Assembly (NCBI RefSeq): GCF_003334305.1
Contig: NZ_QOWS01000021.1
Origin: Escherichia coli
GTDB lineage: Bacteria; Pseudomonadota; Gammaproteobacteria; Enterobacterales; Enterobacteriaceae
Length of the DNA: 64,000 bases
Strand: one strand, 5' to 3'
Both the position numbers and the translations under genes were made by a program. Of this stretch, positions 13,620 to 54,149 are shown one piece after another (the stretch's first letter is position 1; every line of letters begins with the position of its first letter). The notes under the pieces are model-generated. The model was given only the letters and a program-made list of their open reading frames with translations. It made no database searches and was not told where the DNA came from.

Positions 13620-14195
13620 CTACGGCAGTGCTGGCCATTCAATATCCTGTGCAGTTGACGTATCAACACGGTTCAGCAACACCCGATACTTTTTCCAGGC
13701 TTCCAGCAATGAGGTTTCTTCCTCCGTTGCGATTTCCAGATCTACAGCATCCTGAAGTGGCGCAATATGCTCACTGGCTACCTGCATCAGGCTGTTTTTT
13801 GTTTCTTCCGCCTCTCGGATCCGGAACAGTTTTTCTGCTTCTGCATCTTTCACCCAGGCTGTGCCGTTCCACTTCTGAAACTCCCCTTCCGGCGATAACC
13901 AGGTAACATTTTCCGGTAACGGACCGAGTTCAGAAATAAATAACGCGTCCCCTGACGCTACGTCATAAACCGTTTTACCCCGATGGTCTTCAACGAGATG
14001 CCACGATGCCTTATCACTGTTGAAAACAGCCACAAAGCCAGCAGGAATATCTGGTGGTGCAATATCGGTACTGTTTGCTGGCAGACCTGTATGAGGCGGA
14101 ATATATGCGTCACCTTCACCAATAAATTCATTAGTTCCGGCCAGCAGATTATAAATTTTTATGGTCCGTGGTTGTTCACTCATTCTGAATGCCAT
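13620..14195 (-). CDS. tfa: Tail fibre assembly protein Tfa, 191 aa
   Basis: Conserved Tfa C-terminal motif; immediately downstream of the side tail fibre gene. Confidence 0.85.
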
Positions 14196-42905: not shown

Positions 42906-43283
42906 ATGACCAACAAAGAAAACAAAGATAAATATATTAACAAGTTCAAGAAAGAGCTTTCAAAATATATACAACCAACTGCTGGAGTGGACATTCAATT
43001 ATTTAACTCTAAGGATGGTGGTGGTGTAATTAAAGCCACTTTGAATAGAAGTGGAAAAAGAAAATCATCTATTGCAGGTAATTTTACTAAATTAGGTGAG
43101 GCAATTACCTCGAGTGGGCAGAGGGTTTTTGGTGGTGATCTATCAAATGTAAATTTTTACGGAACAAATACGATTTTTGATGGAGATACAATATTTTTAA
43201 TTAAATCACCTGATTCAGAGGAGTGGTCATCACAAAAAGCTTCCAAAGACGTAGAGGGCATCGTATTTGGAGGGAAAAAATGA
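42906..43283 (+). CDS. Hypothetical small soluble protein, 125 aa (first gene of an AT-rich reverse-oriented cargo pair)
   Basis: ORF on the strand opposite to the flanking early genes; Lys/Gly-rich; no recognisable motif. Confidence 0.5.
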   Translation: MTNKENKDKYINKFKKELSKYIQPTAGVDIQLFNSKDGGGVIKATLNRSGKRKSSIAGNFTKLGEAITSSGQRVFGGDLSNVNFYGTNTIFDGDTIFLIKSPDSEEWSSQKASKDVEGIVFGGKK

Positions 43284-43708
43284 TTAACATTACTACTAAG
43301 GATGGCACTCAAGTCAGTGGTGAAGTAAGAGATCTAGTAATTCTTCTTGAAACTGATGGAAAAACGGTGTCTGATTATTTGCAGCCAATCCCTCCCAAAA
43401 AAGATACACACTGGAGCATGATTTTCATTCCGGTAGCAATTTATATACTACTTAATCTTGTATACATTATTGCTCACCCATTATTTCCTGAAAAATATCT
43501 AAAAACATCAACATCTATATTTCTATTCATTTCCTTCATATTAAGTGCAATAGTAGCATATTTTGTTTTCCATAAGCATAAATCTGCCACTCTATCCATA
43601 TGCAGCTTAGTGTTCTTAGTGTTAATTGTAGGTGCTAACGTAGGGTTTATCAGTTACAGCGACCTAACACAAAAAGCGACGCAAAAATTAGATAGTTTGT
43701 CTAAATAA
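43280..43708 (+). CDS. Hypothetical membrane protein with about 3 TM helices, 142 aa
   Basis: ATG preceded by GGAGGG; ATGA overlap with the upstream gene; three hydrophobic stretches of about 20 aa. Confidence 0.5.
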   Translation: MINITTKDGTQVSGEVRDLVILLETDGKTVSDYLQPIPPKKDTHWSMIFIPVAIYILLNLVYIIAHPLFPEKYLKTSTSIFLFISFILSAIVAYFVFHKHKSATLSICSLVFLVLIVGANVGFISYSDLTQKATQKLDSLSK

Positions 43709-43786: not shown

Positions 43787-44500
43787 TTATTCTTTATTAT
43801 CTTCTTTACCACTTCGCACCATCCCGTTCGACTTGTTGCGGTTGTACTTCGCCTGAAGCAGCTGGATTGGCGTCGGGCCATGCTCGGCAGCCGGTGCTGC
43901 AATCGCCCGGCGCACAGGCGGTACTGGTTTGCCCTCGGTGACGCGCCTCTCCCACATGTCCAGCAGATCGCCGGCTTCACGCGCCAGCTCACCATGCGTT
44001 AACTGGCGCTCTGTGCTGCGGTGGCGCAGTTCGACGCAGATGTGGTACATGACAGGCTGTGACCACGGGAAATGCTCGCTGGAAGTGAATTCGAAGGAAC
44101 GATTACGCCAATCCCAGTATTCGGTTATGACTTGGTCAACAGTGATACCTAACGCCCCGCCACTCTGCTTACACCACGCTACGAACTGGCCGGGCGACGG
44201 CAGGAATGGTCGCTCCTGTCGGCGGGCCACGCGCATTCCGGCGTTAACCTGTTCCATTGTGGTGATCCCGTTTTCCCGGAAAGCCAGAACCCACTGGCGG
44301 CGAATTTCGTTCAGTTCGTTCTGGTCACGGTTAGCCAGGCTCGCAGGGAAAGTTGCCAGCAACTGGCTGAATACACCGTTGATGATCTGCGCTACCTGCT
44401 GTACCTGCGGCTTTTCGTCGTACTGTTCCGGCATGTTGTTGGCGATCCGGCGCATCTGCTCACGGTCAAAGTTAACCATCTGTGCGGCGATGTTTTTCAT
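43787..44500 (-). CDS. P: Replication protein P (helicase loader), 237 aa
   Basis: N-terminal two-thirds match lambda P as recalled; the C-terminus diverges. Confidence 0.85.
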   Translation of the reverse strand: MKNIAAQMVNFDREQMRRIANNMPEQYDEKPQVQQVAQIINGVFSQLLATFPASLANRDQNELNEIRRQWVLAFRENGITTMEQVNAGMRVARRQERPFLPSPGQFVAWCKQSGGALGITVDQVITEYWDWRNRSFEFTSSEHFPWSQPVMYHICVELRHRSTERQLTHGELAREAGDLLDMWERRVTEGKPVPPVRRAIAAPAAEHGPTPIQLLQAKYNRNKSNGMVRSGKEDNKE

Positions 44501-45426
44501 AAATCCACCCCGTAAATCCAGTCAGTGTTCGTCAGGTCGAGTTTTGGTTTGCCGGCTGTCACGCCAGCCTGTTGCTTGTTTCGGTTGATTTCGAGCTGGG
44601 TCCACTTGTCGCGGAGTTTGGCCGGACTCAGCACGTTACCGGACCAGAAGTTGTCCTGGCAGGCCCAGCGAAACAGTACACACATGTCGCGGTGGTTACG
44701 TCCATCACGTTCACGCATCAGACGGATATCGTTAGCCCACCCTGCAAAATTCGGTTTTCTGGCTGATGGTGCGATAGTCTTCACCATGTCAAACATCCAC
44801 TCTGCGGCGGTCAGGTCTTCTGCTGTCCCCCACTTGCTGCCGTTCTGAATCGCAGCATCCGCTTTCACCACAGGAAGGTCGTTTTCTGGCAGGTCAGAGG
44901 ATTCGCCAGAATTCTCTGACGAATAAGGTTTTATATTGTCTTTTGTTAGTTTGTCTTTTGTGTTTACCGGATTCGGGTAAGTGCCTTTACCTGATTTGGG
45001 TAAACTTTTCTTACCTGATTCAGGTAAATTTACCTCTTTCAGGTAAACTTTATTTTTCTTACCTGATTCGGGTAATGTTGACCATTCACTGACCACATTA
45101 TTAATGCCTATATTCCGCCCGCTCTGAATAAAAATCCCACGCTTTACCAGAACACTTTTTGCAGCAGAACACTTGTGCGGCAATATCCCGGTCAACTCGG
45201 AAAGTTGCTCGTTGCTCACCCAATCCAGTTTTTTATTAAAGCCATATGTTTTGCGCATGACAGCCAGGAAGACCAGAAGCTGGTGCTGTGTTAATCCGGC
45301 CAGCATTACAGCTTCCAGCAACTCATTTGCAATGCGCGTATAACCATCATCGAGATCTGCCACGCGCGGCTCCTTTTGTGCCGCATCCGGCACAGGAAAA
45401 TTGAATATCTCAGCAGTGTTTGCCAT
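44497..45426 (-). CDS. O: Replication initiator O (contains ori iterons)
   Basis: ORF 44497-45516; ATG at 45426 has a GGGAGG SD and an N-terminus (MANTAEIFNF) like lambda O (MTNTAKILNF). Confidence 0.8.
   Translation of the reverse strand: MANTAEIFNFPVPDAAQKEPRVADLDDGYTRIANELLEAVMLAGLTQHQLLVFLAVMRKTYGFNKKLDWVSNEQLSELTGILPHKCSAAKSVLVKRGIFIQSGRNIGINNVVSEWSTLPESGKKNKVYLKEVNLPESGKKSLPKSGKGTYPNPVNTKDKLTKDNIKPYSSENSGESSDLPENDLPVVKADAAIQNGSKWGTAEDLTAAEWMFDMVKTIAPSARKPNFAGWANDIRLMRERDGRNHRDMCVLFRWACQDNFWSGNVLSPAKLRDKWTQLEINRNKQQAGVTAGKPKLDLTNTDWIYGVDL
44963..45075. repeat. ori: five ~17-bp iterons (ttacctgattcgggtaa-like) with a flanking AT-rich stretch, inside the O gene
   Basis: Direct repeats ttaccggattcgggtaa, ttacctgatttgggtaa, ttacctgattcaggtaa, ttacctctttcaggtaa, ttacctgattcgggtaa; coordinates approximate. 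Confidence 0.75.
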
Positions 45427-45512
45427 AATTCCTCCCGCAATGAGTGTGTTACGATTTGCACCTGAAAGTCGGTTCTGTTCCCGCAGACCGACTTTCGCCA
45501 TTTTTAAACCTG

Positions 45513-46058
45513 TCATATTGCCCCCAACATGGTGGTAACCATCGCCATCAATGGACCAGCCAGATCCGGGTCCACACGAAACATCGACACAATACCTTCA
45601 CTCATCTCCTTCAGTTTCTGGTGGCGTGGTGCGTTGAGAATGACAGCCTGTTTTGCCTCACTGAGTTCCTTTTCCATTTCAGCCAACCGAGTCATGAAGC
45701 TATCCTGCTCAACCAGGTAACCGCGATATTCCAGCGGTAGTACCGCCAGAATTGCCGGGGTCAGTTCACGCACGTTATTTCGGTATTTTTCAGAATCGAA
45801 TTTGTTATCGAGGAAGCGGAACAGCTTCTGGCGTGCACGGCTGACATCATCAGGGAAATCGATGGTGCCGCCGCCCTGTGCTCGATACTCATTCACAATG
45901 AGTGCGGCAACAACATCCTGATTATCTGCAGCCGACCAGGCGCGGACGGCATCACGGATTTTTTCGTGGCCTGGCACCTGTTTTGTTTGAGAACGATTTA
46001 TCACCGCAGTCGGGCTAAATCCGCTAGTCTGTTGGTATGTAAGTGGTTGCATAGTCAT
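45513..46058 (-). CDS. YdaT-family protein in the cII position, 181 aa
   Basis: Similarity to Rac YdaT as recalled (EYRAQGGG…LTPAILAVLP vs EYLRQGGG…LIPAILAILP). Confidence 0.6.
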   Translation of the reverse strand: MTMQPLTYQQTSGFSPTAVINRSQTKQVPGHEKIRDAVRAWSAADNQDVVAALIVNEYRAQGGGTIDFPDDVSRARQKLFRFLDNKFDSEKYRNNVRELTPAILAVLPLEYRGYLVEQDSFMTRLAEMEKELSEAKQAVILNAPRHQKLKEMSEGIVSMFRVDPDLAGPLMAMVTTMLGAI

Positions 46059-47242: not shown

Positions 47243-48382
47243 ATGGCAGCGGTTGAATTTCAATTGTCTAGGAAGATGATTGATTGGATAGCAAATTCTC
47301 AAGGAGTTTCTATCGAAACTCTTGCTGACCAAGTCATGCCCAAAAAGATTAATAAATTTCTTAACGGAGTGGTAAGTAAATCCGCAGCAGAAAAACTGGC
47401 AAAAATTGGAGGAATCCCTTTCGGTTTTTTATTTCTTGAAACGCCACCAACTCCAGCCAAACCCAAGATCCCTGACTTAAGGCAAGCTATAAATAGCCGT
47501 GAGTTAGGAAAAGATTTTTTTGATGTTTACTATGATATAGAATATAAACTTGAGTGGTACAAAGACTATTTAAGAGAAAATGGTAATGATGATCCACTCG
47601 ATTTTATTGGTAAATTTAAATTTAATAGAAAATTAAATTATAAGGTTGTTGCTACAGACATAGCAAACACAATACATTTTGATATACAAAAAGAGATAAA
47701 AAATGTCACTTTTGAGAGCTATTTTTCTAAAGTGGCAAAACTAATAGAAGACACTGGCGTATTAGTTTTCAAGAATGGTGTTGTGGGTAATAATAATAAA
47801 AGAAAACTTGACACGCGAGAGTTTCGTGGTTTCTGTATATCTGATAGCGTTGCTCCGATCATTTTTGTAAATAGCTCGGACGCGTTATCTGCGCAGGTAT
47901 TTACATTATTTCATGAGGTGGCTCATCTTTGGCTTGGAGTCGATGGAGTCTCTGGGTGGGACACAGAAAAAAACATAGAATCTTTTTGTAATAAAGTTGC
48001 TGCTGAAATCTTAATGCCTGATAATCTCTTCAAATCTTTCTGGCTTAATGCATCCAGCGATAATAATTATTATCGAGTAAAAGAGGTTTCTAAGTTATTT
48101 AAGGTTAGTGATTTCGCTTGTGCAATCAAAGCGTTACAATTAGATTTGATAGAAAGAAACACTTTGGAGATAATTAAAGATCAAGCTTACAATAAGCCCA
48201 AAAAAGAATCCAATGGTGGTTCTTTCTTTAACACATTACCTGTTCGTAACAGTCCAAAACTTACGAATATAATAATTTCCAAAGCAATGTCTCAACAATT
48301 ACCATTAAGGGAAGCAGGCGTACTGCTAAATGTAAAAGCAGATACAGTTGTTGAATTTTATAAAAAACGAGAATCTCTATGA
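47243..48382 (+). CDS. HTH-fused ImmA/IrrE-family (M78/DUF955-like) zinc metallopeptidase, 379 aa
   Basis: N-terminal XRE-like HTH; HEXXH motif (FHEVAHLW); AGGTGA SD; AT-rich; directly downstream of cI. Confidence 0.7.
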   Translation: MAAVEFQLSRKMIDWIANSQGVSIETLADQVMPKKINKFLNGVVSKSAAEKLAKIGGIPFGFLFLETPPTPAKPKIPDLRQAINSRELGKDFFDVYYDIEYKLEWYKDYLRENGNDDPLDFIGKFKFNRKLNYKVVATDIANTIHFDIQKEIKNVTFESYFSKVAKLIEDTGVLVFKNGVVGNNNKRKLDTREFRGFCISDSVAPIIFVNSSDALSAQVFTLFHEVAHLWLGVDGVSGWDTEKNIESFCNKVAAEILMPDNLFKSFWLNASSDNNYYRVKEVSKLFKVSDFACAIKALQLDLIERNTLEIIKDQAYNKPKKESNGGSFFNTLPVRNSPKLTNIIISKAMSQQLPLREAGVLLNVKADTVVEFYKKRESL

Positions 48383-48891
48383 TTCATAATGGAAAATTCT
48401 TAATTGATAGTAATGTCTTCATAGAGGCAAAAAACTTTGCATATAACTTCAATTATTGCAAAATATTTTGGGATTTTCTTCTCGCTTTACACATTAATGG
48501 TCTGATTTATAGCATTAATGCTGTAAAAAAAGAACTATGTGCAAAAGATGATCCATTGTGTAAATGGATTAAAGAAGAGTTACCATCATCATTCTTCGAA
48601 GATGAGCATAGTTCAATAGAAAATTATGCAAAGTTAATAAATTGGTCAACTAAATTAGATGTTACCGAAAAGGCAAAGTTTGATTTTGCAAGCCATGAAA
48701 AAGCAGATGCTTTTTTAATAGCCCATGCGATGACACATGGATATACTATTATTACCCATGAGAAACCATCCGGTGGCAAACCTAAAAAAAGAATAATGAT
48801 CCCGGATGCTGCTGCTTCTCACGGCGTTAAGACATTAACACTATATGAATTTCTTCCAAGATACGCTAGTCATAATTTTTCTTTGAAATAA
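48379..48891 (+). CDS. PIN-like (possibly DUF4411-family) putative nuclease/effector, 170 aa
   Basis: ATGA overlap with the upstream gene; N-terminal strand-Asp motif (FLIDSNVFIEA) typical of PIN folds; fold assignment is tentative. Confidence 0.5.
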   Translation: MIHNGKFLIDSNVFIEAKNFAYNFNYCKIFWDFLLALHINGLIYSINAVKKELCAKDDPLCKWIKEELPSSFFEDEHSSIENYAKLINWSTKLDVTEKAKFDFASHEKADAFLIAHAMTHGYTIITHEKPSGGKPKKRIMIPDAAASHGVKTLTLYEFLPRYASHNFSLK

Positions 48892-54072: not shown

Positions 54073-54117
54073 TGGCGCGCCCTGCAGGATTCGAACCTGC
54101 GGCCCACGACTTAGAAG
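54073..54117. repeat. attR core (3' 45 nt of argU), identical to 7529-7573
   Basis: Direct repeat seen in sequence. Confidence 0.85.
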
Positions 54118-54149
54118 GTCGTTGCTCTATCCAACTGAGCTAAGGGCGC
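54073..54149 (-). tRNA. argU: tRNA-Arg (anticodon UCU), argU; prophage attachment site
   Basis: Reverse complement reads GCGCCCTTAGCTCAGTTGGATAGAGCAACGACCTTCTAAGTCGTGGGCCGCAGGTTCGAATCCTGCAGGGCGCGCCA (77 nt, cloverleaf-compatible, CCA end); coordinates approximate. Confidence 0.9.

Follow-up and report, generated by a model that had tools for sequence, protein, structure and literature searches.

Two overlapping replication genes lie on the minus strand of a 64-kb stretch of Escherichia coli DNA, referred to below as the window. The first of them, recognized from the list of open reading frames, the RefSeq annotation, Pfam and alignment with lambda O, encodes an O-type replication initiator of 309 aa (44497–45426). 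The open frame reaches further upstream to 45516 (ORF 44497–45516); the likely start at 45426 is backed by a 930-nt RefSeq "replication protein" at the E. coli A7 locus and aligns with the first residue of the 434 and lambda O proteins. The plus-strand ORFs overlapping O (44525–44848 and 45173–45343) were treated as mechanical ORFs. Directly downstream lies a helicase-loader gene of the lambda P family (237 aa, 43787–44500, minus strand; Pfam Phage_lambda_P, PF06992, E = 1.8e-48), and the early-right order cI-cro-cII-O-P expected around a lambdoid origin is present. The ATG of P overlaps the stop codon of O (ATGA), as in phage 434.

Pfam places the Phage_rep_O family (PF04492, E = 1.2e-33) at aa 21–115 of O. 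From this match and an AlphaFold2 model, the segment (45082–45366, minus strand) is predicted to be the N-terminal origin-binding domain, with a winged-helix-like fold. The model runs helix-helix-helix-helix-beta-beta at a pLDDT of 76. Its best fold matches in the PDB are dimers of the CRP/FNR and MarR families, which are weak (E 6e-3 to 3e-2, TM ~0.4–0.47); as matches of a model they are compatible with dimer binding to palindromes, and no proof of it. A PDB sequence search with O gave no match at E ≤ 1, and no O-protein structure was found. The residue differences among related O proteins cluster at aa 70–100, the predicted helix-turn-helix segment, which in the AlphaFold model comprises the last two helices and the beta wing of the winged-helix-like fold. 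Over its whole length O is 67% identical to 434 O, the two being nearly identical from aa 160 onward. The C-terminal half, from the SSENSGESSD motif to the C-terminus, is almost identical to that of lambda and 434, and the N-domain is 47% identical to that of lambda O.

An oop-like antisense unit is located on the plus strand at 45401–45508, where a promoter-like site over the O start codon (TTGAAT-17-CATAAT, with TG) is followed by a strong hairpin and a U-run (RNA fold z = −4.3). The promoter-like site is conserved with the promoter regions of the phi80 M3 RNA and the 434 oop RNA. This unit is separate from the origin proper. An Rfam scan of the whole window returned nothing at the origin or at the oop-like unit, and gave only a tRNA and an IS009 RNA match at 13654–13852 (minus strand). 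A promoter/terminator scan around the origin gave no enrichment over shuffles, with one hit within the array (45085–45114).

Five palindromic repeats inside the O coding sequence

The preliminary description of this DNA had proposed five repeats of about 17 bp inside the O coding sequence. A search of both strands of the 64-kb window for the pattern TTACCNNNNNNNGGTAA, with at most one mismatch allowed, yielded five exact 17-mers of the form TTACC-N7-GGTAA at 44964–45075. Outside the array there is one further match, which carries a mismatch. Dinucleotide-preserving shuffles gave 1.18 matches per 64 kb on average and at most 4, and none of the 100 shuffles reached six. A repeat search returned the same five copies as one family, with start-to-start spacings of 23, 24, 19 and 29 on the plus strand, or 29-19-24-23 along the direction of O, and recognized each copy as an inverted repeat of its own. 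The proposed repeats are thus present above the shuffle background and are recovered by both searches; the strand has to be corrected, since the repeats and the O reading frame are on the minus strand. Tandem Repeats Finder reports 2.2 copies with a 19-bp period, an under-count caused by the irregular spacing.

Read in the direction of O, the array follows AGTGAATGGTCAACA and begins with the distal iteron 1 (45059–45075, TTACCCGAATCAGGTAA, read as LPESGK). After 12 nt comes iteron 2 (45030–45046, TTACCTGAAAGAGGTAA), which is in the other frame and read as YLKEVN, and after 2 nt iteron 3 (45011–45027, TTACCTGAATCAGGTAA, read again as LPESGK). Iteron 4 (44987–45003, TTACCCAAATCAGGTAA, read as LPKSGK) is 7 nt further on, and another 6 nt separate it from iteron 5 (44964–44980, TTACCCGAATCCGGTAA, read as YPNPVN), which adjoins the AT-rich region; ACACAAAAGACAAACTAACAAAAGACAATATAAAACCTTATTC and GTCAGAGAATTCTGGCGAATCCTCTGAC follow. 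All five are minus-strand features and all ten of their arms are perfect. The core consensus is TTTACC-N7-GGTAAA, the sites being dyad-symmetric over 17–19 bp, and in the center iteron 5 has a C where most relatives have an A. The array accords with what is expected of a lambdoid origin, namely at least three to four dyad-symmetric repeats of ~17–19 bp placed about two helical turns apart, between the N-terminal DNA-binding and the C-terminal domains of a Phage_rep_O gene. The iterons correspond to aa 118–154 of O, right after the Pfam domain.

Repeats within a coding sequence may also be a mere peptide linker between two domains, with no role as DNA sites. The region is indeed a low-complexity linker between the O domains, and the LPESGKK-type peptide repeat that had been attributed to the array is encoded by three of the five iterons, as LP(E/K)SGK. 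The attribution fails for the other two, iterons 2 and 5, which are shifted in frame, the codon positions at the starts of the five copies being 1, 3, 1, 1 and 3. With two of the five repeats read in another frame, the conserved unit must be the DNA palindrome and not the peptide, and the peptide-repeat explanation was rejected for this reason. Moreover, every unit is palindromic, the arms are more conserved than the spacers, as described below, and the position, the spacing and the AT-rich neighbor are those of the proven lambda origin. A linker devoid of DNA-site function is therefore hardly credible.

Conservation was compared among the window and 80 related IMG/VR viral loci whose N-domains are at least 98% identical. 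Exactly five sites at 29-19-24-23 are kept in 73 of the 81 sequences; one sequence has seven sites and several have four, one site having been lost or mutated. Among 45 ungapped haplotypes drawn from 74 related sequences, the palindrome arms are least polymorphic (3 of 50 columns) and the spacers between iterons most (7 of 27), a modest contrast (Fisher p = 0.028). In the same 45 haplotypes the variability of the arms is not significantly lower than that of the flanking coding sequence (p = 0.12).

The AT-rich region and the mosaic joints

The presumed DNA-unwinding element is a 43-bp AT-rich region at 44921–44963 (minus strand), with a GC content of 25.6%, versus 48% for the O gene and 50% for the whole window. 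An AT-rich stretch beside the iterons had been noted before as part of the interval 44963–45075; the stretch is real, and its position is just outside that interval. It contains two copies of ACAAAAGACAA, which form a 15-bp direct repeat family, and the same pair occurs in the AT-rich regions of P22, Salmonella phage SEN34 and a Providencia phage. Next to it, at 44893–44920, lies the inverted repeat GTCAGAGAATTC/GAATCCTCTGAC, with 12-nt arms that are 92% complementary. The sequence of this repeat is identical to that of 434 and is common to lambda and 434. An AT-rich region of ~40 bp directly after the last iteron and then an inverted repeat are again what a lambdoid origin is expected to have. 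The iterons, the AT-rich region, the inverted repeat and the overlapping P gene all stand in the lambda order, which bears out the lambdoid arrangement put forward in the preliminary description.

DNA homology to the lambda and 434 O genes (~94%) sets in with the base that follows the last iteron. In megablast, the alignments to 434, SfI, ev099 and many other lambda-type O genes all start at query position 553/554, which is position 44963 of the window, and therefore the mosaic joint is the exact boundary between a type-specific and a common part. The type-specific part consists of the N-domain and the iterons; the common part consists of the AT-rich region, the inverted repeat and the half of O that interacts with P. 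Such a joint between a type-specific and a common part is the textbook organization of lambdoid origins. A second joint can be located within P. Over its first ~110 aa P differs from 434/lambda P by a single residue, and over the other ~125 aa the similarity is only weak, so that recombination has joined the O-adjoining part of the gene to a different remainder.

In lambda, four 18-bp iterons each receive two O molecules, and the AT-rich region measures ~38–39 bp (PMC6022878, PMC3349717). By analogy with lambda, dimers of the N-terminal winged-helix domain of O would bind the five dyad-symmetric iterons of 17–19 bp. The resulting O nucleoprotein complex (O-some) would then strain and open the adjacent 43-bp AT-rich region, after which the lambda-like C-terminal half of O would recruit P and the host DnaB helicase, and replication would start there. 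The four proximal iterons appear to correspond to lambda ITN1–4, as judged from their spacing (19/20-24-23 bp). The fifth is probably an extra distal site, 29 bp upstream, similar to the extra iterons of Stx phages, which have six iterons with the additional ones distal (PMC7466680).

Iteron types and initiator types

Comparison with known systems separates several iteron types. In lambda, 434 and 21 the iteron is TCCC-N9-GGGA, present as four sites at 20-24-23. The origin described here resembles that of these phages in many respects: it lies in the middle of O, it has dyad-symmetric iterons with a proximal spacing of ~20-24-23 bp, ~40 bp of AT-rich DNA and then the GTCAGAGAATTC/GAATCCTCTGAC inverted repeat come after these sites, O is near-identical in its C-terminal half, and P overlaps the O stop codon with a near-identical start. 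It differs in having TTACC-N7-GGTAA instead of TCCC-N9-GGGA, five sites instead of four, an N-domain of only 47% identity, and a diverged C-terminal half of P. No sites of the lambda consensus ATCCCTCAAAACGAGGGAT are present, and the origin accordingly does not fall into the lambda specificity group, to which 434, 21 and the Stx phages also belong. Phage 21 was considered as a separate origin type and ruled out, since its sequenced genome has a lambda-type O gene and lambda-type iterons.

The iteron of phi80 is TTCCC-N6-GGGAA (TTCCCGAAAACGGGAA), known from annotated gp15 sites. Four such sites lie in the initiator gene (gene 15), beyond which come an AT-rich stretch and the inverted repeat described above, and the protein encoded upstream of O in the window shares 66% identity with the 180-aa "CII" protein of phi80. 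Nevertheless, the phi80 iteron sequence, its 20-21-21 spacing and an N-domain only 37% identical to that of O here set it apart, and the origin is not of the phi80 specificity group. The iterons thus differ from those of lambda, phi80 and 21, in agreement with the view that the iteron sequence is not that of lambda; the comparison with these three phages had been suggested together with that view.

Among the named classical phages, the closest N-domains (57–65%) are those of P22 gene 18 and the Providencia phage PSTNGR2lys, with 57–61% identity by alignment and 65–68% by tblastn over the core. Their iteron is TTTACC-N5-GGTAAA at 20-24-23, a spacing that lambda, P22 and the Providencia phage have in common. 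They have the outer half-sites TTTACC and GGTAAA as well as the ACAAAAGACAA pair in common with the origin described here. In P22, however, the half-sites are 5 bp apart instead of 7 bp, there are four sites instead of five, and gp18 differs in its C-terminal domain and has a DnaB-type helicase (gene 12) as its partner instead of P. Judged by its iterons, the origin is thus outside the P22 gene 18 specificity group as well. As the TTTACC/GGTAAA half-site is common to both origins and the half-sites here are 2 bp further apart (N7 versus N5), initiator specificity in this branch of O proteins might have been switched mainly through the spacing of half-sites, that is, through dimer geometry, and not through base contacts. 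Such a switch is conceivable, though on balance unlikely.

Salmonella phage SEN34 has an N-domain 59% identical to that of O here and the iteron TTAGC-N7-GCTAA. Identical iterons, TTACC-N7-GGTAA at 29-19-24-23, are found at N-domain identities of 81–91% in Klebsiella phage RCIP0098, two E. coli loci (L089 and L090) and a Salmonella locus (L091). The iteron type therefore tracks the type of the N-domain, being the same at 81–91% identity and different in P22 and the Providencia phage (57–61%), SEN34 (59%), lambda (47%) and phi80 (37%). RCIP0098, whose N-domain is ~81–82% identical, and the loci L089 and L090 differ from the window in that the N-domain, the five iterons and the AT-rich region are followed by an unrelated C-domain. 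In L089 and L090 (1201–2912) the gene following O encodes a DnaC/IstB-like ATPase, a loader, instead of P. The occurrence of the same N-domain and origin with other C-domains and loaders indicates that the N-domain/origin module is exchanged as a unit; from these sequences, the initiator/origin module and the loader module appear to recombine independently.

The sequences show directly how the region is arranged, which protein families are encoded, where the mosaic boundary falls and that iteron type and N-domain type occur together. On these grounds the five-site array is very probably a lambda-style replication origin with an initiator/iteron specificity of its own. Given that the iterons are not those of lambda and the N-domain is 47% identical, we infer a distinct replication specificity as the natural reading of the divergence of both.

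Alternatively, the origin may be of the classical phage 82 type (ori82), with the same mechanism and no new specificity. Recombination between the O genes of 82 and lambda yields functional hybrids that work with lambda P, and ori82 has five repeats. The phage 82 origin was reportedly treated by Moore, Denniston and Blattner in 1981, ori82 being said to have been sequenced around 1980; we take its specificity to be separate and the C-terminus of its O protein to be compatible with lambda. The function of such lambda-82 hybrid proteins is in keeping with an O whose C-terminal half resembles that of lambda, as here. In addition, the prophage, which occupies the DLP12 site, has a rusA-ylcG-Q (quuD) block, and the Q/rusA region of DLP12 type presumably resembles that of phage 82. 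On the basis of this region, assumed to be held in common, the two origins possibly belong to the same specificity group. However, given the mosaic nature of lambdoid genomes, little can be concluded about O from an 82-like Q region. Neither for the O gene nor for the 82-like Q/rusA region did the matches in the phage collection include a record of phage 82, its name is absent among the members of the O protein cluster, and no description of its iterons was found in the searchable open literature. Identity with ori82 is given a probability slightly short of even. With either outcome the lambda-style mechanism set out above would be the same.

Distribution, integrity and prophage context

A 231-bp query spanning the array matched 2425 of 5426 complete E. 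coli genomes (~45%), of which 2382 were covered over at least 80% of the query length, with up to three copies per genome. This origin type is thus not rare. Similarly, the full O gene and origin are carried at 95–97% DNA identity by 15 sequenced phages, several of which list E. coli C or K-12 as host; phages with this O gene and iteron array include 4A7, Lambda_4C10, Perceval, 1W, 3W, Turner and the PhiR series. Since these are sequenced phages, the O gene and origin evidently work in viable phages. The exact 309-aa O protein occurs on 148 contigs in public data, and 7825 members make up its 90% cluster.

A large share of the public proteins of this O type are labeled partial and end at ~157–250 aa. 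It seems that draft assemblies are interrupted at the origin or shortly beyond it, and these breaks may stem from the lambda-like second half of O being repeated among co-resident prophages.

DLP12-site prophages are often defective, and the array could be the decayed, non-functional origin of such an element. The central A-to-C change of iteron 5, private as compared with most relatives, could be taken as a sign of this. Against decay, O and P are both intact, and the 309-aa O frame is unchanged on all 148 public contigs mentioned above. None of the ten arms has a defect, sequenced phages have the same array at 95–97% identity, and the arrangement of five iterons is kept in 73 of the 81 sequences (80 viral contigs and the window). 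A decayed origin is accordingly very improbable, and the array is better regarded as an origin of lambda style.

The number of iterons is polymorphic, being 4, 5, 7 or 8. For instance, seven sites occur in one Salmonella locus (L093, 1553–1711) and eight in another (L095, 1553–1735). The array expands by a 24-bp unit composed of the iteron and GAAAAGT, which adds LPESGKKS to the protein. As this origin type occurs in ~45% of complete E. coli genomes, in up to three copies and with four to eight iterons, prophages that share a cell may cross-activate one another's initiators or titrate them.

In the phage records with this array, no rep_origin or iteron feature is present beneath the match, and the O coding sequence alone is annotated. 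The records of 434 and 21, by contrast, do annotate rep_origin and iteron features. The exact iteron strings were not found in the searchable open literature. The origin is an ordinary representative of a kind known from textbooks, and E. coli prophages very commonly carry it. The gain lies mostly in annotation: the phage and RefSeq records examined annotate only the protein, and the findings add no new principle. For one of the lambdoid replication modules that are most widespread in prophages of E. coli and Salmonella, the origin now has exact coordinates and a consensus (TTTACC-N7-GGTAAA, 29-19-24-23). The correspondence of initiator domains with iterons could help to predict replication compatibility among co-resident prophages, and could also aid the design of orthogonal vectors of the lambda-dv type.

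The host element is a complete lambdoid prophage at the argU (DLP12) site. A 24.2-kb part of the window (32902–57130) matches the chromosome of E. coli strain A7 (CP028767) at 99.992% identity. A tRNA gene at 54076–54149 (minus strand), annotated as tRNA-Arg in A7, abuts the prophage, and the combination of tRNA-Arg and an intD-type integrase identifies the DLP12 site. Upstream of O are a phi80-CII-like protein, a Cro-like gene and a cI-like repressor. The gene in the cII position (45513–46058, minus strand) encodes a 181-aa YdaT-domain protein and not a CII of lambda type; it is this protein that is 66% identical to the phi80 "CII decision making protein".

Beside the cI-like repressor, at 47243–48891 (plus strand), an ImmA/IrrE-family metallopeptidase (379 aa) and a DUF4411 protein (170 aa) are encoded by two genes whose stop and start codons overlap. 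In lambda the place of this pair is occupied by rexAB, and the pair may be an accessory or defense-like module. Between P and the ybcN/nin genes, at 42906–43708 (plus strand), ORFs of 125 and 161 aa run opposite to the early-right operon. Both are hypothetical in strain A7, and the 161-aa ORF has apparent membrane segments.
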